IMG/VR virus record: IMGVR_UViG_3300030618_000005
DNA length: 64,000 bases
Origin: a virus
Taxonomy: Duplodnaviria > Heunggongvirae > Uroviricota > Caudoviricetes
Reading direction: 5' to 3' (one strand)
The first letter of the stretch is position 1; each line of letters begins with the position of its first letter. A program made the translations under genes and the position numbers. Shown in pieces: positions 144-44,975 of this stretch. The notes beneath the pieces are model-generated. The model saw nothing but the letters and a program-made list of their open reading frames with translations, was not told the DNA's origin and made no database searches.

Positions 144-1346
144 TTAGGCATAACTCTCCTCTTCCATCACCAGCTTGACGCCGTTGTTGTCGTCATCATC
201 TGGGTCACCCATAACGGGCCGGTTCAACTCTTCACGGTACTCGTCGCGCACCATCTTCCACGCAGCCTGCGACGGGTCTTTGCCATCGTAGGCCATGAAG
301 CAGAGGCCAGAGTACTTGCCGTCCTTCTCGGTTAGGAAGAACTCAGCAACAGACTTGCGACTCTCGTAGTTGCGGATAAGCGCATTGTCTACGATCTTCT
401 TGGTCTGAAGCATGATGCCAGCGTACGCAGTGGTGAAGGTCTTCTGCCACTCCTCAACGAAGCTCACAAGCTCCGGTCGGCCAGCATCCTTCGTCCATGT
501 CTCGATGATATCGTAGTCCCCGTTCGTCAGCGCCTCAAGGATGTTCTTCGGGGTCGCCGCGTGAACAATCTTCTGGAGCTTCAGGAAGGTCTCATGCTTC
601 ACCTTGATCTTCAAAGGCGGAAGGTTGGGCCGCCAGTACGACAGCACGTAGCCCTCCGTGTTCGGTCGATCCTCTACTAGAACCGTGCTCACCGTCTTAG
701 CAAAAATCTCGACGGTCTTTAGTCCGTTCAGGAATGCGTAGTGGTACAGCTCGTTGTAGCTAATCTCTTCGCCGGTCTCGTTGTTGATGAGCGCCAGTAA
801 GACTAGTTGATCTTCGATCTCGTAATGAACCACGTGGCGTTGAACTGCCTGCGCGATCATCTCAAAGACTGGTGTGTAGCCCGCAGGCCACTGGTGGTTC
901 TTGCAGTGCTTACTGAACCAGTACGTCGCCCACTTGGAGTGGTCAGACGTGAATGATCCTTTGGACGCGACACCGAAGAACGTATCGTTCCCTACCTTGT
1001 ACTCGTAGAAGATACCGAGTGACCCATCCAGCTTGTCGAAGACAGCAGGGTGTTGGTCCGGCAGATTGGTGAACAGAGTCTCAGGCCGGTCCAGCGTGTC
1101 GATGTTGAAGAACTTCTCGAACGGACGAGAGATGATGACACCCTTGTCGTCCACGATGAGACCACGGCACTTGATGGTGATGTCGTCCCAGACGTTATCA
1201 AAGGTCGCCTGCTTGCTATAGCAGAGGATCGACAACGGAAGCTCAGGGTGAGCGCGACGGGTAACTAGACCCTCCGCGATATACTGCTCAAGCTTGTCTA
1301 CGTCGAGGTAGTCTTTTAGCAACATTACTTCAGCTCCTTGGTCCAC
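144..1346 (-). CDS. rnlA: ATP-dependent RNA ligase, T4 RnlA (Rnl1)-like
   Basis: Motif I KLDGSL, CRGLIV..SRPFEKFFNID block, EGYV and LKIKVK motifs align by eye to T4 Rnl1. Confidence 0.75.
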   Translation of the reverse strand: MDQGAEVMLLKDYLDVDKLEQYIAEGLVTRRAHPELPLSILCYSKQATFDNVWDDITIKCRGLIVDDKGVIISRPFEKFFNIDTLDRPETLFTNLPDQHPAVFDKLDGSLGIFYEYKVGNDTFFGVASKGSFTSDHSKWATYWFSKHCKNHQWPAGYTPVFEMIAQAVQRHVVHYEIEDQLVLLALINNETGEEISYNELYHYAFLNGLKTVEIFAKTVSTVLVEDRPNTEGYVLSYWRPNLPPLKIKVKHETFLKLQKIVHAATPKNILEALTNGDYDIIETWTKDAGRPELVSFVEEWQKTFTTAYAGIMLQTKKIVDNALIRNYESRKSVAEFFLTEKDGKYSGLCFMAYDGKDPSQAAWKMVRDEYREELNRPVMGDPDDDDNNGVKLVMEEESYA

Positions 1347-30497: not shown

Positions 30498-31091
30498 TTA
30501 CCTCTTTAGGTTGTACTCGGCTAGACGAAGGCGTTCCCGCTCAATTCGTGCGTTGTTCTTGCGCTCCATGAGAGCGTACACAGTGTCCAGTGATACCGGG
30601 GTGAAGTTGTTGGCATCGACGCCTACATCCATCGACAGAAGGTCCGGCGCGTATGCAAGCTCACCGTGCGAATGTCCGTAGAGCTGGATCGATCCCTTAT
30701 GAGAATCCCTCCAGACGCGGCCCGCGTAGTGATCGAGCACGATGCGCTTCTGACTGATGGGCCTCAGGAACACGCGCTCTTCTACTGACTCGAACAACCG
30801 TGCGATGAAGGCGTTAGATTCCAACAGCTCTTCGTGGTTGCCCTTGACGTATCGATGCGCCCCATTCAACCGGCTCATGATGTACTCTGCCTTATCGTAG
30901 CCCAGAGTTCTCCAGAACATATCGCCAAGGTGCCAAACGGTGTCGCCATCTTTCACGACATCGTTGTGGCGCTCGATCAATCCCTCGGTCATACCGTCGA
31001 GAGAAGTCCAAGGGCGTGCCTTCTCCACACGCCCCCAGCCTAGCATCGCATTCTCGTGCCCGTGGTGCTCGTCTGCGGTAAAGAAGTCCAT
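30498..31091 (-). CDS. calcineurin-like metallophosphoesterase
   Basis: TADEHHGH, HLGDMFWR, GNHEE, GHSH motifs. Confidence 0.7.
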   Translation of the reverse strand: MDFFTADEHHGHENAMLGWGRVEKARPWTSLDGMTEGLIERHNDVVKDGDTVWHLGDMFWRTLGYDKAEYIMSRLNGAHRYVKGNHEELLESNAFIARLFESVEERVFLRPISQKRIVLDHYAGRVWRDSHKGSIQLYGHSHGELAYAPDLLSMDVGVDANNFTPVSLDTVYALMERKNNARIERERLRLAEYNLKR

Positions 31092-33564: not shown

Positions 33565-33965
33565 GCCAGTGACAACCCCAATCACCCGCCGACCGACCCC
33601 ATGAAAATCCATTCGTCAGCCTTCCCACGTAAATGTTTAGACTGGGGGATCGCTCCCCCTTCTGTTGCTAGGCCCGTCAAGAGGCCCCAGCGGTTATTAG
33701 GCCGCAAGTAGCTGTGCTGCAACAACGCTCTTGCGAACGCTGAAACGGACACGGCTGTGGCTGACACTTTCGGTGACAGTTCTTTTTTTCCAGCAGTCAA
33801 GGTCGCTAGGCACCTGCACAGTCCACTCTTCTATCTGTATCCGTCGAAGCCGTGACATCCCCGTATGCGGTACGCTTACGAGATTGTTTTGGTGGAGATG
33901 GCGAGAGTCGAACTCGCGTCCGTCTACCGACTTTGGAGCTTCATACCATGCGTAACTTTTTGAAT
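33565..33965 (-). ncRNA. ssrA: circularly permuted (two-piece) tmRNA-like gene
   Basis: See first finding: E. coli-like 3-prime T-arm/acceptor with encoded CCA, GGGGAUG 5-prime end with G3:U70, tag frame ..AAQLLAA-UAA-UAA. Confidence 0.6.
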
Positions 33966-38281: not shown

Positions 38282-38309
38282 TTGACTTTCGAAAAAAGGG
38301 TGCTACACT
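38282..38309 (+). promoter_or_regulatory. sigma70-like promoter TTGACT-16-TACACT
   Basis: Shares gcTACACTgGTATT with 37785 promoter. Confidence 0.55.
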
Positions 38310-38446
38310 GGTATTAGACAGTTGAGGGAAAGAAGCCCTCCAAGAGTCACGAGATAGGCGAGTGGGCCTCCTCCTAGGAGCTGTAAAGCCCTACCCACCG
38401 CCGTTATTTGAAAGCGTATCAAGTACGTGAGGAGCAAGGAGATACA

Positions 38447-38947
38447 ATGCCACAGGCACCCGCAGCAGGAAACACCGTCGCAAGTCTAAGACCAGTACCC
38501 GTCCAGCACGCGATCAAACTTCCCGTTGCTCAACAGACCGTAGCGCAGAAGGTCGAAGCAGAAGTCAAGCACGTCGGTCAGGTAGTCGAGACCGCAGTAC
38601 AGCACGTCATCCACCCTACCGCAGAAGTGGCAAAGGTTGAGACTGAAGCCAAGGCTGATGCAGCCAAGGTCGAAGCTGATGTGAAGACTGAGGCCGTGAA
38701 GGTTGAAGCCGCAGTAGCAGCGCCGGTCACCGCAGTGAAGACTGTTGTCCAGCATGTTGAGGCCGCATCCAAGACTGACCTAGAGGCACTCATTGCCCGC
38801 GTCAAGGCTCTTGAGACCGCCGCAGCAAAGCCGGTTGCAGCCGTCAAGACCGCAGTATCTAGCGTGTCTGCTGACGTTGAAGCTCGTGTTGCTGACATCG
38901 AAGCGAAGATCGCTAATTACAATACTCGTTCTGGGCAGAAAATCTAA
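38447..38947 (+). CDS. Ala/Val/Glu-rich amphipathic-repeat protein
   Basis: AGGAG RBS plus ATG 38447; repeated VEAxVK/AKVEA units. Confidence 0.45.
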   Translation: MPQAPAAGNTVASLRPVPVQHAIKLPVAQQTVAQKVEAEVKHVGQVVETAVQHVIHPTAEVAKVETEAKADAAKVEADVKTEAVKVEAAVAAPVTAVKTVVQHVEAASKTDLEALIARVKALETAAAKPVAAVKTAVSSVSADVEARVADIEAKIANYNTRSGQKI

Positions 38948-38953
38948 GCTCAT

Positions 38954-39077
38954 TTGCGGGTAGCTCAGCGGTAGAGCATTCGGCTGTGCGAGATGTGGAA
39001 CGCCACGCTCCAGTGCAACTCTGGAATCTCGAAAAGTAACCGAACGGTCGCTGGTTCGATCCCAGCCCCGTGAGCCA
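38954..39077 (+). tRNA. atypical tRNA-like gene with 49-nt structured insertion in anticodon arm
   Basis: Canonical acceptor, D-arm, T-arm and encoded CCA; anticodon stem TTCGG/CCGAA encloses a 56-nt three-way junction. Confidence 0.45.
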
Positions 39078-39221
39078 TTTTCTAACACGTCTGTCGGTAC
39101 GCGCTCCGCGCAACCGTCCATCCCCGCCTGCGATGTAAAAATCGGGCACACATTCGCGCTACGGCGCTAACCCCCGGCTTCGCGGTCGCAAGACTCCTCC
39201 GGGGAGACATTAGATTCAAGT

Positions 39222-39296
39222 GGGCGTGTAGCTCAGCGGGAGAGCAACTGCTTTGCAAGCAGAAGGTCAAGGGTTCAATCCCCTTCTTGTCCACCA
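39222..39296 (+). tRNA. tRNA-Ala (UGC)
   Basis: G3:U70, anticodon loop TTTGCAA, canonical D and T arms, encoded CCA. Confidence 0.8.
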
Positions 39297-39346
39297 TATT
39301 AGCGTAGCCGTCGTCCTACGGGACGCCTAATAGAGCTACCATACCG

Positions 39347-39871
39347 GTGAATGCCGGTACCTTTCTAGGGGCCAACAACGCGATGTCGAATCGAGTAAAA
39401 CTCAAAAAGAGCCAGCTCGATTATTTCCGCAAGCTGGCTCGTAAGTCCGACAAAGAGATCATGGCCTACCTCGTTGGTGAGGTGAAAGCCAAAGACTTGA
39501 TTGTCATTGATAGCTTCGAGTACACCAAGGATTACCACACGCAGACAGAGCAGCAGGTCTCGTGGTACGTCACGGAGTATAACAAAGTTAGAGAACGTGC
39601 TGAGGAGCGCGGGAAGAGCGTCATTGGTTACATACACACGCACCCACAATGGGACGCGGTGATGTCTCCGGTTGACTATGAAGGATGTGTGCGCGATATG
39701 CACCCGTTGTGCGGGATCACTTCCGTCAACAAGGGCAAGACGCGGACACGCTTCTGGGTCATGGACAGCTCACTTCCCTGTGATGTGATCTATGTCGAAG
39801 AAAAACGAAGTTCTAAAACGAAACGAAGTGGCCCTGAAGCAGCCGAAGCTGGTCAGGATCAGGGACTATAA
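39347..39871 (+). CDS. JAB/MPN (JAMM) metalloprotease domain protein
   Basis: HTHPQWDAVMSPVD = HxHx7Sx2D; upstream Glu; start may be ATG 39383. Confidence 0.65.
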   Translation: MNAGTFLGANNAMSNRVKLKKSQLDYFRKLARKSDKEIMAYLVGEVKAKDLIVIDSFEYTKDYHTQTEQQVSWYVTEYNKVRERAEERGKSVIGYIHTHPQWDAVMSPVDYEGCVRDMHPLCGITSVNKGKTRTRFWVMDSSLPCDVIYVEEKRSSKTKRSGPEAAEAGQDQGL

Positions 39872-40414: not shown

Positions 40415-40731
40415 TGAACATCGACGTAACGCAAGTACCGGGTTTGAACGGGGTGACTTATGTGCCGTACCAACAGCCAACCGTCTGCCCCGGATGCGGA
40501 CGATGTAATCACTGCGGACGAGCGTATCCAGAAGTTGCGCCAGCGTATCCGTACTATCCGCAACCTCAAATCACGTGGTCGGCCCAAGGCGGTCAGTCCA
40601 CCCTCGCCCAAGGCGGTCAGTCCACCCTCGCCCAAGGCGGTCAGTCCACCCTCGCAAACACGCAAGCGACTGGCGAAGTGTTTTATCGAAGCAGTCAGCA
40701 ACTTTTACAAGGAGATGTAAAGAGTCAGTAG
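40414..40731 (+). CDS. Cys/Pro/Tyr-rich protein with 3x AQGGQSTL tandem repeat
   Basis: CPGCGRCNHCG; 24-bp x3 tandem repeat. Confidence 0.45.
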   Translation: MNIDVTQVPGLNGVTYVPYQQPTVCPGCGRCNHCGRAYPEVAPAYPYYPQPQITWSAQGGQSTLAQGGQSTLAQGGQSTLANTQATGEVFYRSSQQLLQGDVKSQ

Positions 40732-40922
40732 AAGGTAAGAAGCTTGGAGTAGACCACGATCATTCGTGCTGTCCCGGTAAATTTTCATGTGGCAAGTGTG
40801 TGCGAGGTCTGCTTTGCCACAACTGCAACGCAATGCTGGGAATGGCTAAGGACGAACTGTCAAGATTGAAAAGTGGTGTAGAGTATTTGGAGAGATATGC
40901 TATATCAAAGGCCAACATTTAG
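40575..40922 (+). CDS. endonuclease VII-like (His-Me finger) protein
   Basis: DHDHSCCPG..CGKCVRGLLCHNCNAMLG; only in-frame start is GTG 40575, inside the repeat region of the upstream ORF. Confidence 0.5.
   Translation: MVGPRRSVHPRPRRSVHPRPRRSVHPRKHASDWRSVLSKQSATFTRRCKESVEGKKLGVDHDHSCCPGKFSCGKCVRGLLCHNCNAMLGMAKDELSRLKSGVEYLERYAISKANI
40585..40656 (+). repeat. perfect 24-bp tandem repeat x3 (gcccaaggcggtcagtccaccctc)
   Basis: Read directly. Confidence 0.85.
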
Positions 40923-41039
40923 CTGCCCAGCAGCAGGGTTGAAAACGACTGATAAGAATTGGGATCGTGCTTTCTTGAGCGCGGATGAGTTCCGCCAGAA
41001 GTACGGCGAGACCCCGGACGGCCAGAAGGTTACTACAGC

Positions 41040-42938: not shown

Positions 42939-44975
42939 ATGAAGCTTCAGAAACTACGAGACCTAATCGCCTCGTGTAAGACGAACCCGAACTATCAGTT
43001 CCGTGAAACAAGTAACGAAGATATCCTCGCGTTGGCCAAGAAGAGCTTTTCGAAGCTCACTGACGGTCAGCGCGAGAAGGTTTATGCGTCATGGAAACGT
43101 GCGCTAGACATGAACAAGGAGGCGCTGGACGACTCAACCGGTGAGCTATTGCTCATCGCTCGATTCATGGCCCAGACCAACCTGTTCTTCATGTGTCACC
43201 TGTTGGAAACCTACAACAAGGTCACCGTGAATACCCACGAAGAAATTTGCAACAAGTTTTTCGTGCAGAAGAACCCGACTTTCGTAACAGTAGAGAAGTT
43301 TGCCAACCAGTATACTGACCTCAAGGATCGAATGTTGCTAGTCCCACGAGGCGGGTTCAAATCTTCTATCGACATTGCAGACGTGGTTCAGTGGGTGAGT
43401 TGCTACCCCGCGATTACCATTCTGATCCTGACGGGTGTGTTCGACCTCGCCAGTGACTTCCTCGGAGAAGTCAAGAACCACTTCACTCTCATAGAGTCGC
43501 AGAAGCTCGACACCAAGACCGGCAAGCCGGTACTCGTGCCCAAGCTCTTCTTCGACGAAGAGACAGAGGAATGGTCTGAAAGCATGTTCCAAACGTTGTT
43601 CCCTGAGCACTGTGTTCCTCCAGCCTCAGGCACTCAGTTCGAGTATCACTCCCCAGCGCAGGGCGATCAGAAAGAGCCAACCGTGAAGGCCGCGTCCATC
43701 GGACAAGCCCTCGTCGGTAAGCACTTTGACGTGATGAAGCTGGACGACGTTATCACGAACGAGAACAGTCAAACCGTTGACCGTTTGAAGAAAATCGCTA
43801 AGCAGATCAGTATTGATCGAGCCATGCTTCACCCTTACGGATTCATGGACGTAATCGGCACGTGGTACGACGAGAAGGACTACTACGGCGAGAAGATCAA
43901 GCAGCAGGAAACGTTCATCAAGGAAGAGGGTCTGTCGAACCTCATCACTGGCAGCGTTGACTCCGGGCGACTGAACATCGAGTACAAGACCAAGACCTAC
44001 CTTCGAGCCGCAATGTGGCTCACCGATCAAGCGATCAAGGAAGGCAAGACCGACGTAGACGCCAAAGGTCCAGACTATGAACTCTGGTTCCCTGAGCGTC
44101 TGCCTTTTAGCTTTTTGTATGATGAGAGAAAGACGGACCCGGAAGGGTTCGCCATCAAGTACCTCAACAACCCGAGAAAGATCAACCGTATCAAGTTCGA
44201 GCGTGCCCTTCTGATGAAGCGCACTATCCCGCACAACATGCTGCCGCCGCAAGGCGTCGTCGTGACGACAGTAGACACAGCGTATTCAACAAAGTCATGG
44301 GCCGATTACACCGTTATCCTGACCACGCTGATATATGGCGGGCGTTTCTACATCCTCAACATGGTGCGCGGACGATTCAACGAGATCGAGCTGCCTGCGG
44401 TTATCGCCAACACAGCGTACAAATGGAAGCCTAAGCGAATCGCCATCGAAGACTCGGTGGGCGTGAAGTGGATGGGACGCGAACTCCGTCGAGAGATGGA
44501 CAAGCTGCAAATCAGCATTCCGATTGAGTACTGCTCTCTGGGCCTCGGCAAGAAGTCTAACTCGAAACAGATGAAAGCCAAGCCGGTACTCCGACTGCTT
44601 GGCGACGAGCGTATGTTCTTCCTCAACTCCTGCGAAGGGTTGAACGAACTCTACAACGAACTCGAAGCCTTCACGGGCACCAGCGACGACACACACGACG
44701 ACATTATCTCCGCACTATCCCTATTGGTTGAGCAGTTCATCTCTTATGCCGATGTGGGATCGAAAGTGGACATGGTGAACTCGCAGTATGTTGCAGATCA
44801 ACAGAACCACGAACGTCATCAACTCGTACACGGTATTGGCAAGTATGCTCACATGAACATAAAGGCCCAGCTCGTGAATGATGACAACCCGGTGACTGCG
44901 TTCCAGATCGACAACAGCCGTATGTTCCGCGATGAGCCAATGGGCACTGACCCGTTTGCCGATCTATTCAACTAA
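42939..44975 (+). CDS. terL: terminase large subunit
   Basis: N-terminal ATPase block LLVPRGGFKSS; RNaseH-like nuclease block VVTTVDTAYST..HDDIISALSL; RMFRDEP near C-terminus. Confidence 0.85.
   Translation: MKLQKLRDLIASCKTNPNYQFRETSNEDILALAKKSFSKLTDGQREKVYASWKRALDMNKEALDDSTGELLLIARFMAQTNLFFMCHLLETYNKVTVNTHEEICNKFFVQKNPTFVTVEKFANQYTDLKDRMLLVPRGGFKSSIDIADVVQWVSCYPAITILILTGVFDLASDFLGEVKNHFTLIESQKLDTKTGKPVLVPKLFFDEETEEWSESMFQTLFPEHCVPPASGTQFEYHSPAQGDQKEPTVKAASIGQALVGKHFDVMKLDDVITNENSQTVDRLKKIAKQISIDRAMLHPYGFMDVIGTWYDEKDYYGEKIKQQETFIKEEGLSNLITGSVDSGRLNIEYKTKTYLRAAMWLTDQAIKEGKTDVDAKGPDYELWFPERLPFSFLYDERKTDPEGFAIKYLNNPRKINRIKFERALLMKRTIPHNMLPPQGVVVTTVDTAYSTKSWADYTVILTTLIYGGRFYILNMVRGRFNEIELPAVIANTAYKWKPKRIAIEDSVGVKWMGRELRREMDKLQISIPIEYCSLGLGKKSNSKQMKAKPVLRLLGDERMFFLNSCEGLNELYNELEAFTGTSDDTHDDIISALSLLVEQFISYADVGSKVDMVNSQYVADQQNHERHQLVHGIGKYAHMNIKAQLVNDDNPVTAFQIDNSRMFRDEPMGTDPFADLFN

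Follow-up and report, generated by a model that had tools for sequence, protein, structure and literature searches.

A tRNA gene of a tailed phage was found to carry, inside its anticodon, a 49-nucleotide (nt) insertion that itself resembles part of a tRNA. The gene lies at 38954-39077 (+) of IMG/VR record IMGVR_UViG_3300030618_000005, a 64,000-nt stretch of Caudoviricetes DNA that was analysed whole and is hereafter called the window, and the insertion occupies 38988-39036. Judged from sequence, the gene encodes the precursor of a phage tRNA-Asn(GUU) whose anticodon is split between U35 and U36, and the insertion is a mimic of the acceptor/T-arm minihelix of a tRNA. This tRNA-like character was absent from the initial annotation of this DNA and is the key to the nature of the insert. 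Searches beyond the window placed the gene in a family of phage tRNA genes that hold a tRNA or tRNA-like minihelix in the anticodon loop. With somewhat less than even confidence, we propose that these genes contain a new class of intron, in which the nested tRNA or minihelix is excised by the universal enzymes of tRNA end maturation and the exons are joined by phage ligases.

The arms of a tRNA had been recognized in the initial annotation, and all of them were found in place. The Rfam tRNA model RF00005 matched 38954-39074 with 47.1 bits (gathering threshold 29; E=6e-7 for the whole window), aligning over model positions 1-71 and assigning a 52-nt insert to the anticodon loop. ARAGORN at default settings did not report the gene; run with its intron option, a check that had been suggested earlier, it returned tRNA-Asn(gtt) with a 49-nt intron at 38954-39077, and this call and the Rfam insert together confirmed the structured insertion that had been described in the anticodon loop. 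The outer acceptor stem (TTGCGGG/CCCGTGA, with U2.G71 and G3.U70) is followed by U8-A9, the D-arm GCTC/AGCGGTA/GAGC and an A. The outer anticodon stem is TTCGG/CCGAA, the variable loop CGGTC and the T-arm GCTGG-TTCGATC-CCAGC, and a discriminator G precedes the encoded CCA.

Between the two halves of the anticodon stem lie 56 nt, made up of 7 loop nt and the 49-nt insertion. All 49-nt deletions were enumerated and four gave formally valid loops, with GUU arising only when CTGT is joined to TAA. Because only this junction yields GUU, and because G73 and synteny also point to Asn, the intron was placed between U35 and U36 (38988-39036), with predicted splice sites at 38987/38988, that is U(-1)/G(+1), and at 39036/39037. 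Taking it out leaves the 7-nt loop CUGUUAA of tRNA-Asn(GUU), with U33 and a purine at position 37, in a tRNA that has the discriminator G73; anticodon GUU and G73 are identity elements of the E. coli AsnRS. An intron-containing tRNA with mature loop CUGUUAA or CUGGUAA had been among the earlier suggestions. The former agrees with the ARAGORN intron call, with G73 and with the syntenic intronless tRNA-Asn(GTT) of related phages, and the latter, which would give tRNA-Thr, is not favoured. Exon 1 (38954..38987, +), recognized by Rfam and by ARAGORN with the intron option, holds the acceptor 5' strand, the D-arm, the stem strand TTCGG and loop nucleotides C32, U33, G34 and U35, and aligns to the intronless tRNA-Asn of Tunturiibacter phage Tunturi_3. 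Exon 2 (39037..39077, +) holds U36, A37, A38, CCGAA, the variable loop, the T-arm, the acceptor 3' strand, G73 and the encoded CCA. The spliced-junction sequence expected for this gene is GGCTGTTAACCGAA.

The computed fold of the anticodon arm with its insert (minimum free energy -21.6 kcal/mol, z=-2.46; 3 of 200 shuffles fold as well) reproduced the closing helix CGAGAT/ATCTCG with two hairpins that had been described earlier. One of these hairpins, TCCAG-TGCAACT-CTGGA, had been taken for an anticodon stem-loop lookalike; comparison with its relatives identifies it as a T-arm mimic instead. The evidence for the intron (38988..39036, +) as an acceptor/T-arm minihelix mimic comes from ARAGORN with the intron option, the fold, RNAalifold on 7 and on 19 unedited homologues, and pair counts. 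It begins with the inner acceptor 5' strand (38988..38994, +), which consists of G1, unpaired and facing A72, and the 5' strand CGAGAT of a covarying helix, P1. A variable linker (38995..39008, +) with the small hairpin GTGG-AACG-CCAC plus GC leads to the T-arm mimic (39009..39025, +), whose 5-bp stem TCCAG/CTGGA also covaries and closes the 7-nt loop TGCAACT. The P1 3' strand ATCTCG (39026..39031, +) follows with no spacer, like acceptor positions 66-71 of a tRNA, and the tail AAAAG (39032..39036, +) supplies position 72, mismatched to G1, and 4 nt in place of N73-C-C-A76.

Tested as a minihelix, the insert stacks 6 bp plus G1.A72 on 5 bp (12 layers), with 39025 and 39026 contiguous, and TGCAACT closed by G-C agrees with the T-loop signature G53-U54-(U55)-C56-R57-A58-N-Y60-C61. 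We read the insert as an acceptor/T-arm mimic because the hairpin loops fit the T-loop consensus and the 3' strands are contiguous as in tRNA. Position 55 of the T-like loop is G in the window versus U in most relatives, positions 1 and 72 form a true pair in L346, L384, L057 and L282 (comparison loci are given by L numbers throughout), and the stretch after position 72, whose length of 4 nt is constant in the family, is AAAG in the window and a true NCCA in at least 10 relatives. Among homologues of the tRNA-Asn subfamily (e.g. L149, L346) the linker is 9-43 nt long and variable in sequence, with a GG kept in most that is a possible mimic of G18-G19 of the D-loop. The window version appears to be a reduced form that has lost the nested D and anticodon arms and in which CCA has been replaced by a purine-rich tail.

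The family came to light through pattern scans. The first metagenome scan placed constraints on the tRNA-Asn exons alone, with CTGT and TAA separated by anything from 35 to 65 nt, and it returned four loci, of which three are true insertions (L149, L150, L152). All three have the same architecture, namely a tRNA-Asn with a 44-52-nt insert at the window's site, the structure of the intron having been left unspecified in the pattern. Each insert begins with G and contains a 6-bp P1, a variable linker and a 5-bp stem with a 7-nt loop (TGCGATT, TTCAACT or TTCGATT), the P1 3' strand adjoining the hairpin and a 5-nt purine-rich tail standing ahead of TAA. L151 was rejected as a member, being an att-type duplication of a tRNA 3' half. 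A second, more specific viral scan gave 18 loci, comprising L346 (already found), 15 new members of the Asn subfamily and two false matches (L400, L405). The closest relative of the window, L394, shares with it P1 (CGAGAT/ATCTCG) and the tail AAAAG, and L399 carries two copies of the interrupted tRNA-Asn. In L394 (2640-2672) and L401 the outer T-loop is non-canonical (GGGATCGTGGCCC and GGGATCGTAGCCC) and the nested T-loop canonical. Other searches gave no relatives: the first exon-anchored viral pattern had no match, the protein of the upstream open reading frame (ORF) retrieved no related loci when used as query, BLAST of the intron alone against 50,697 GenBank phage records gave chance matches only, and no second copy of the intron with up to 3 mismatches occurred in the fetched loci. 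The contig pattern CTGTGN{38,58}RGTAA... produced 121 matches, all lacking a D-arm upstream of CTGTG and none an insert-bearing tRNA; their RGTAA loop ending suggests ordinary tRNA-Thr genes.

The helices of the Asn subfamily are maintained by compensatory change. On 19 unedited sequences, RNAalifold recovered the outer stem together with P1 and the T-like hairpin, compensatory changes being present at 13 of 15 pairs, and the same structure was obtained from 7 unedited sequences. In a linker-free alignment, built from our own structural parse and with the 6-nt bulge of L152 taken out, 99% of cells were paired and 13 of 16 pairs were compensatory; none of 500 shuffles reached the observed values, and slid alignments were 30-55% paired. 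CTGTG, the A4-U69 pair, the equivalents of G53, U54, C56, A58 and C61, and TAA were invariant in the 19 homologues. Tails in the subfamily are purine-rich (AAAAG, AAGAG, AAAGA, GAAGG...) with an invariant A73, for which pairing with U35 is possible.

Nested elements also occur in tRNAs other than tRNA-Asn. All fetched loci, including 120 from a scan for two T-loops 24-42 nt apart, were searched with a descriptor that asked for a T-arm-like hairpin directly next to a 7-nt strand with an upstream pairing partner, for nesting in a 5-bp outer stem, and for restoration of a 7-nt loop on removal. The outer tRNAs recovered were Ile(UAU) (L057, L282, L325), Lys(UUU) (L138, L276, L345), Thr(UGU) (L276), Glu(UUC) (L285), Gln(UUG) (L333), Arg(UCU) (L053) and Asn(GUU) (L346, L384), and the Rfam tRNA model independently scored outer genes as tRNAs with 45-80-nt inserts. 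Many members, including L057, L282 and L346, pair G1 with C72 (or C1 with G72) and end in a genuine NCCA; L384 is CCA-less, and its intron stops straight after the discriminator. T-loops in the relatives read TTCGATT, TTCAACT, TTCAAAT or TGCGATT. At the other extreme, the nested element is a complete tRNA-Phe(GAA) of 72.4 bits inside a putative tRNA-Arg(UCU) in L053 (4972-5124), a full-length class-II-like tRNA in L276 (5300-5500) and L333 (11060-11260), and a complete or near-complete tRNA in the anticodon loop of another tRNA in L345 (8141-8294, -). In L053 the nested and the outer tRNA could both be functional. Altogether the family comprises about 30 further phage-contig examples, ranging from complete nested tRNAs to minimal minihelices.

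Default ARAGORN miscalled several genes with a nested minihelix as tRNA-Leu(caa), taking the inner hairpin for a long variable arm (L057:4247-4339; L282:135-225, -; L276:47-143), and public annotations may contain similar errors. Two further Rfam matches were seen within the phage tRNA arrays, a skipping-rope RNA (L053:1708-1777, +; 60.4 bits) and an abiF RNA (L384:2089-2125, -; 46.8 bits).

A single boundary rule runs through the family. The 5' boundary is position +1 of the inner element in all members, and the 3' boundary is its position 76, except in the CCA-less L384, where it is 73. The place of the element in the outer tRNA varies, lying after nucleotide 34, 35 or 36, and its removal always restores exactly a 7-nt loop. 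In a control without any constraint on loop sequence, the spacing between outer stem and inner helix (n5+n3, the two flanks together) peaked at 11 nt, the sum of a 7-nt loop and a 4-nt tail, at 15 of 45 sites, with 1-5 sites at every other value. Nucleotide -1 is U in all members but one and +1 is usually G; U(-1)/G(+1) is the preferred context of bacterial RNase P.

One member belongs to a cultured phage. BLAST of the L397 gene against GenBank phages matched Agrobacterium phage Atu_ph07 (490 kb; MF403008.1) at 323902-324027 over 95% of the query, a position at which no feature is annotated; BLAST of three other family members against the same phages gave nothing useful. The Atu_ph07 region scored 57.2 bits with the Rfam tRNA model, with a 47-nt insert, and reads CTGT/A-AGAGGC-AAAGGTAACTAT-TCAG-TTCGATT-CTGA-AGCCTCT-AAAAG/TAA (slashes flank the insert), which assigns it to the same family as the window gene. 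Atu_ph07 has been reported to have tRNAs for all amino acids but Asn and Thr (PMC6102473). Its "missing" tRNA-Asn is this interrupted gene, and the finding that its tRNA-Asn exists only in interrupted form provides independent evidence that such genes are functional copies. A second interrupted gene in the tRNA region of Atu_ph07, at 335105-335213 (L412:35105-35213, -), has a 33-nt hairpin intron with no T-loop. Under one possible junction its loop becomes TTTGTAA, and this may be the missing tRNA-Thr of the phage; the junction is ambiguous, and Ile(UAU) is also possible. L152 likewise contains, at 406-509 (+), a tRNA-Thr(UGU)-like gene with a plain hairpin intron and no T-loop; the Thr-like introns of L152 and L412 are 32-33 nt long and lie at 34/35 or 35/36.

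Synteny connects the interrupted gene with conventional tRNA-Asn genes. The window encodes the terminase (42939-44975), portal, DNA polymerase and tail proteins of a tailed phage, and five ordinary tRNAs and one permuted transfer-messenger RNA (tmRNA) besides the interrupted gene. Its closest cultured relative is Tunturi_3, with a host in the Acidobacteriota (70% identity in one structural protein). At the position after its gp140 homologue, Tunturi_3 has an intronless tRNA-Asn(GTT) with loop CTGTTAC, G73 and encoded CCA. An intronless tRNA-Asn(GTT) was present in 9 of 26 TerL-related IMG/VR loci, and in five of the nine (L004, L008, L011, L017, L023) the next gene is tRNA-Ala(TGC), as in the window, where tRNA-Ala(UGC) at 39222..39296 (+) serves as the synteny marker; none of the 26 loci has an insertion. 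The same phage is represented on at least 24 ENA contigs, and the gene and its intron were identical in six independent ENA assemblies, which excludes both an assembly artefact and a recent lesion as the source of the insert. The sole difference, seen in a strain of 98.8% identity, is C40 to U, which gives G30.U40 and preserves the structure.

On the basis of these boundaries we propose a route of excision. The precursor would fold with the nested minihelix presented like a tRNA, and host RNase P would cut between U35 and G1 (38987/38988), leaving exon 1 with a 3'-OH. A second endonuclease, for which RNase Z/BN-type and RNase E-type enzymes are candidates, would cut after the 4-nt tail (G76/U36) and leave exon 2 with a 5'-phosphate. 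With the tRNA body holding them in place, the exons would then be joined at the anticodon loop by an ATP-dependent RNA ligase of the phage, of the Rnl1 type or of PF09414 (RNA_ligase family), giving mature tRNA-Asn. RNase P is proposed for the 5' site because the 5' boundary is always an RNase P site, usually U(-1)/G(+1), and ligase sealing because the ends left by RNases P, Z and E (3'-OH and 5'-phosphate) are substrates of ATP-dependent RNA ligases. T4 Rnl1 reseals breaks in anticodon loops. The conserved part of the family is, we infer, the module recognized by RNase P, RNase Z and the CCA-adding enzyme, a 12-layer acceptor/T stack with the T-loop elbow. The 3' boundary coincides with the 3' end of a mature tRNA; the RNase Z of T. 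maritima cuts directly downstream of CCA, and RNase E can in some cases generate the CCA end directly (PMC7479834). L384, where the intron ends after the discriminator, would fit an RNase Z cut after N73. We see an even chance that the minihelix intron is excised by RNase P and a 3' endonuclease and that a phage ligase joins the exons.

Candidate ligases are encoded by the same phage. An Rnl1-family RNA ligase resembling T4 gp63 (144..1325, -; PF09511, E=1.5e-19, 71.2 bits against a cut-off of 28.3) is a candidate exon-sealer; it has 40% identity to gp74 of Tunturi_3, and in tblastn it matched genes annotated as Rnl1/gp63 in 1681 phage records. A second RNA ligase (PF09414 and PF21189) of the same phage lies about 5 kb beyond the window start (L392:16282-17562). 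The product of 30498..31091 (-) is metallophosphoesterase-like, with weak Pfam Metallophos matches and 47% identity to the "phosphoesterase" gp132 of Tunturi_3; it is a possible RNA end-healing enzyme, which would matter only if excision were followed by healing and sealing. Tunturi-like phages have a kinase, a phosphoesterase and two RNA ligases, with a Tpt1-like 2'-phosphotransferase in Tunturi_3; no Tpt1 homologue is present in the window. Around other family loci, where flanks are too short for a real test of ligase co-occurrence, Pfam on 20 flanking ORFs gave hints only, namely a PHA02142-type ligase OB domain in L276 and a kinase-HD protein in L053.

Excision by tRNA end-processing enzymes has to be weighed against several observations that do not sit well with it. 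The window tail is AAAAG rather than NCCA, and a canonical RNase Z cut after A73 would give a 10-nt loop. The G1-A72 mismatch reduces the inner acceptor to 6 bp plus one non-pair, and the T-like loop has G instead of U at position 55. The ligases are carried by intronless relatives too, Tunturi_3 among them, and are therefore permissive rather than intron-specific. Phage tRNAs also carry short inserts without a T-loop (the ACAGCAA and GGTTAYC classes and the tRNA-Thr hairpin introns), and these may reflect a more general splicing activity. A serious rival follows, to which we give a low though appreciable probability: a dedicated nuclease of phage or host, possibly of the anticodon-nuclease type that leaves a 2',3'-cyclic phosphate and a 5'-OH, would cut both sites, and the ends would be healed by kinase and phosphoesterase and sealed by ligase, as in T4 Pnkp/Rnl1 repair, and the tRNA-like shape would serve for recognition only or be a vestige of how the element arose. 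The end-healing genes of Tunturi-like phages, the Tpt1-like gene of Tunturi_3 and the phosphoesterase homologue in the window are what such a pathway would use; the T-loop-less introns of L152 and of the Atu_ph07 tRNA-Thr argue for a more general activity, and the 3' site of the window subtype misfits the rules of RNase Z. What a dedicated nuclease leaves unexplained is that the acceptor/T-arm module and the T-loop alone are conserved amid decay elsewhere, and that boundaries track +1 and 76/73 of the inner element, not positions of the outer tRNA; nor does the window contain an identified candidate endonuclease or a Tpt1 homologue.

The remaining explanations fare worse. An unspliced 124-nt RNA, or the freed minihelix, could itself be the product, serving perhaps to decoy defence nucleases that attack tRNA, or enzymes that bind it. 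The outer tRNAs (Asn GUU, Lys UUU, Thr UGU, Gln UUG, Glu UUC, Ile UAU, Arg UCU) are of classes often hit by anticodon nucleases, PARIS targeting Lys(UUU), Thr(UGU) and Asn(GUU) tRNAs (PMC12409363), and enzymes with affinity for the tRNA elbow could plausibly bind the minihelix. A decoy has no need of an exact 7-nt loop with U33 and R37, however, the gene is syntenic with conventional tRNA-Asn, and such a role could coexist with splicing without replacing it; we find it improbable, and the tRNA-derived regulatory RNA of the initial annotation is not supported. We consider it decidedly improbable that the gene is dead, a pseudogene left by an accidental insertion, for instance of a mature tRNA fragment that had been joined to the ends of a cleaved tRNA before being copied into DNA. 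The precise +1...76 boundaries do resemble the footprint of a mature tRNA and make an origin at the RNA level plausible, and in some arrays (L150, L394) an intronless version of the tRNA is present as well. Against this, at least 19 diverged copies in the Asn subfamily keep perfect exon cloverleaves and maintain the intron helices by compensatory changes, the interrupted gene is the only tRNA-Asn in the window, in arrays L346, L373 and L399 and in Atu_ph07, and it is stable across strains. The same preservation of exons and insert helices, together with the invariable return to a 7-nt loop, speaks against the mobile-element target remnant that had also been suggested, and an integrase att-site scar was rejected, crossovers in anticodon or T loops duplicating the tRNA 3' half (as in L151), unlike the +1...76 boundaries seen here.

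A small self-cleaving or self-splicing ribozyme is very improbable. The insert is compact and structured and has a T-loop module common in functional RNAs, but no Rfam family matched it at E<=10, nor did any turn up at 12 further loci with inserts, P1 and linker are unrelated between Asn, Ile and Lys members so that no sequence core is common to the family, and there is neither a terminal U.G pair between 5' exon and a guide sequence nor a terminal G rule. Across 38850-39350, Rfam at E<=10 reported only two tRNAs and no group I or II intron or self-cleaving ribozyme of the hammerhead, twister, twister-sister, pistol, hatchet, hairpin or HDV-like kind, the result of a covariance-model check that had been recommended at the outset, and the judgement that 49 nt is too small for a group I intron stands. 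A hammerhead-type core was rejected as incompatible with a three-way junction with 0, 2 and 0 unpaired nt, and transesterification by the 3'-OH of a freed U35 was rejected too, the sole helical alignment pairing U35 with A73, four positions off the 3' junction. Least probable of all is an archaeal/eukaryal-type intron with a bulge-helix-bulge (BHB) motif and an EndA-like splicing endonuclease. Size and anticodon-loop location do recall archaeal and eukaryal tRNA introns, but the site is 35/36, not 37/38, the context is a bacteriophage with a tmRNA and a closest cultured relative in an acidobacterial host, and inspection of every pairing near the splice sites yielded no two 3-nt bulges 4 bp apart, the predicted structure there consisting of an internal loop (3x3), 2 bp of helix and a bulge of 3 nt. 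Two other enzymes were considered and set aside: excision by RNase III, whose 2-nt 3' overhang would end at position 74 and not at the observed 76, and RNase P for the 3' cut as well, no acceptor-like helix beginning at U36.

Other inserts and neighbouring features were recorded alongside. More than 120 phage tRNA genes (IMG/VR loci L029-L148; examples at L055:6304-6423; L084:55-172, -; L030:1052-1167; L130:9677-9805, -; L090:71-197, -) carry 20-60-nt inserts of other kinds. Two T-loop-less classes recur, "hairpin (CAUG..GUG top) + ACAGCAA" and "CG/UAA ... GGUUAYC" (the slash marking the insertion point), neither with a match to any Rfam family; both usually interrupt the anticodon stem on its 5' side, following position 28 (CG/TA), and several tRNAs per array can be affected. 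Upstream of the tRNA-Asn gene of the window, a promoter-like site TTGACT-16-TG-TACACT (38282-38309, +) precedes an ORF at 38408-38947, and the stop codon of this ORF is 6 nt ahead of the tRNA, which is probably excised from an mRNA-tRNA co-transcript. Just 3' of both tRNAs, 39347-39871 (+) encodes a JAB/MPN-domain protein (PF01398, PF14464) homologous to gp141 of Tunturi_3, annotated as a "minor tail protein". Strain alignments break at 40607-40630 with about 25 nt of overlapping query, and L386 differs also around 40722-40923; this pattern suggests that assemblies of this one phage differ by a short repeat or an indel. The permuted two-piece tmRNA lies at 33697-33952 (-) with 71.1 bits against RF04321 (33491-33985 by ARAGORN; predicted tag GKADEWIFMGSVGG) and is conserved in Tunturi_3 (L002:38172-38396, -). 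Maturation of this RNA likewise requires cleavage at tRNA-like ends, and no ligation. Beside the tmRNA of Tunturi_3, at L002:37750-37824 (-) and L002:37994-38051 (-), we noted an ARAGORN tRNA with the 4-base anticodon gaaa and a partial Rfam tRNA (model positions 6-65, 34.8 bits).

If the route through RNase P, a 3' endonuclease and a ligase is correct, it would add to self-splicing and the BHB endonuclease a further way of removing tRNA introns, assembled from housekeeping enzymes and a ligase. To our knowledge, phage Rnl1 and Rnl2 ligases have so far been explained only as repair against host anticodon nucleases; they would gain a programmed, constitutive splicing substrate besides repair, and phage tRNA expression would depend on them. 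Phage tRNA repertoires are under-counted or miscalled by ARAGORN without the intron option, the tRNA-Asn of Atu_ph07 being one case. The series from complete nested tRNA to minimal minihelix is a natural record of the parts that end-processing enzymes need. Speculatively, the elements go back to a processed tRNA that became joined, on either side, to the halves of a broken one before being copied into DNA, its dispensable parts then being lost; an origin at the RNA level is suggested because the footprint of a mature tRNA (+1 to CCA76) sits inside a broken anticodon loop. Atu_ph07 and Agrobacterium tumefaciens C58 form a cultured system for direct tests.

Full-text searches of open-access papers and bioRxiv turned up no account of phage tRNA introns that are nested or resemble tRNA, and the insert belongs to no Rfam 15 family. 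The present evidence indicates a new structural class, defined by a tRNA or minihelix that sits in an anticodon loop from its own +1 to its own 76, and this novelty does not depend on the mechanism; a pathway of RNase P, 3' endonuclease and ligase, if correct, would make the splicing logic new too. The group I introns of tRNA-Leu(UAA), fMet, Arg(CCU) and Ile(CAU) resemble the window intron in interrupting bacterial-type tRNAs in the anticodon loop at a site other than 37/38 and in being missed by standard tRNA finders, and group I introns were recently reported in tRNA-Asn and tRNA-Asp of Patescibacteria (PMC13011429). Group I introns are about 200 nt or more, with a catalytic core (P3-P9), a 5' U.G pair and a terminal G, none of which the 49-nt insert has. 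BHB introns are also short, lie in the anticodon region and are presumably removed by protein or ribonucleoprotein with an RNA ligase, the eukaryotic Trl1-type tRNA ligases and phage Rnl1 being related ATP-dependent ligases; they have no tRNA-like fold of their own, whereas the window intron is defined by one, lacks the BHB motif and occurs in a bacterial virus. The mascRNA of MALAT1, viral tRNA-miRNA precursors, the tRNA-like domain of tmRNA and the intervening segment of permuted tmRNA share with it an acceptor/T-arm mimic within a larger RNA, with ends at +1 and 73/76, the principle on which the excision proposed here relies. After excision of such tRNA-like structures by RNase P and RNase Z, however, the flanks are not rejoined, whereas here they are tRNA halves that require ligation. 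In T4 tRNA repair (Pnkp and Rnl1 after PrrC), an Rnl1-family ligase acts on a broken anticodon loop held by the tRNA body, as we propose here; the T4 enzymes undo damage that the host inflicts on an intact tRNA, whereas here the break would be programmed by gene structure and the intervening RNA discarded. The split and permuted tRNA genes of Nanoarchaeum and Cyanidioschyzon, too, have non-contiguous halves that need processing and joining or pairing; unlike the gene in the window, they are archaeal or eukaryal, have BHB-type junctions and contain no nested tRNA-like element.

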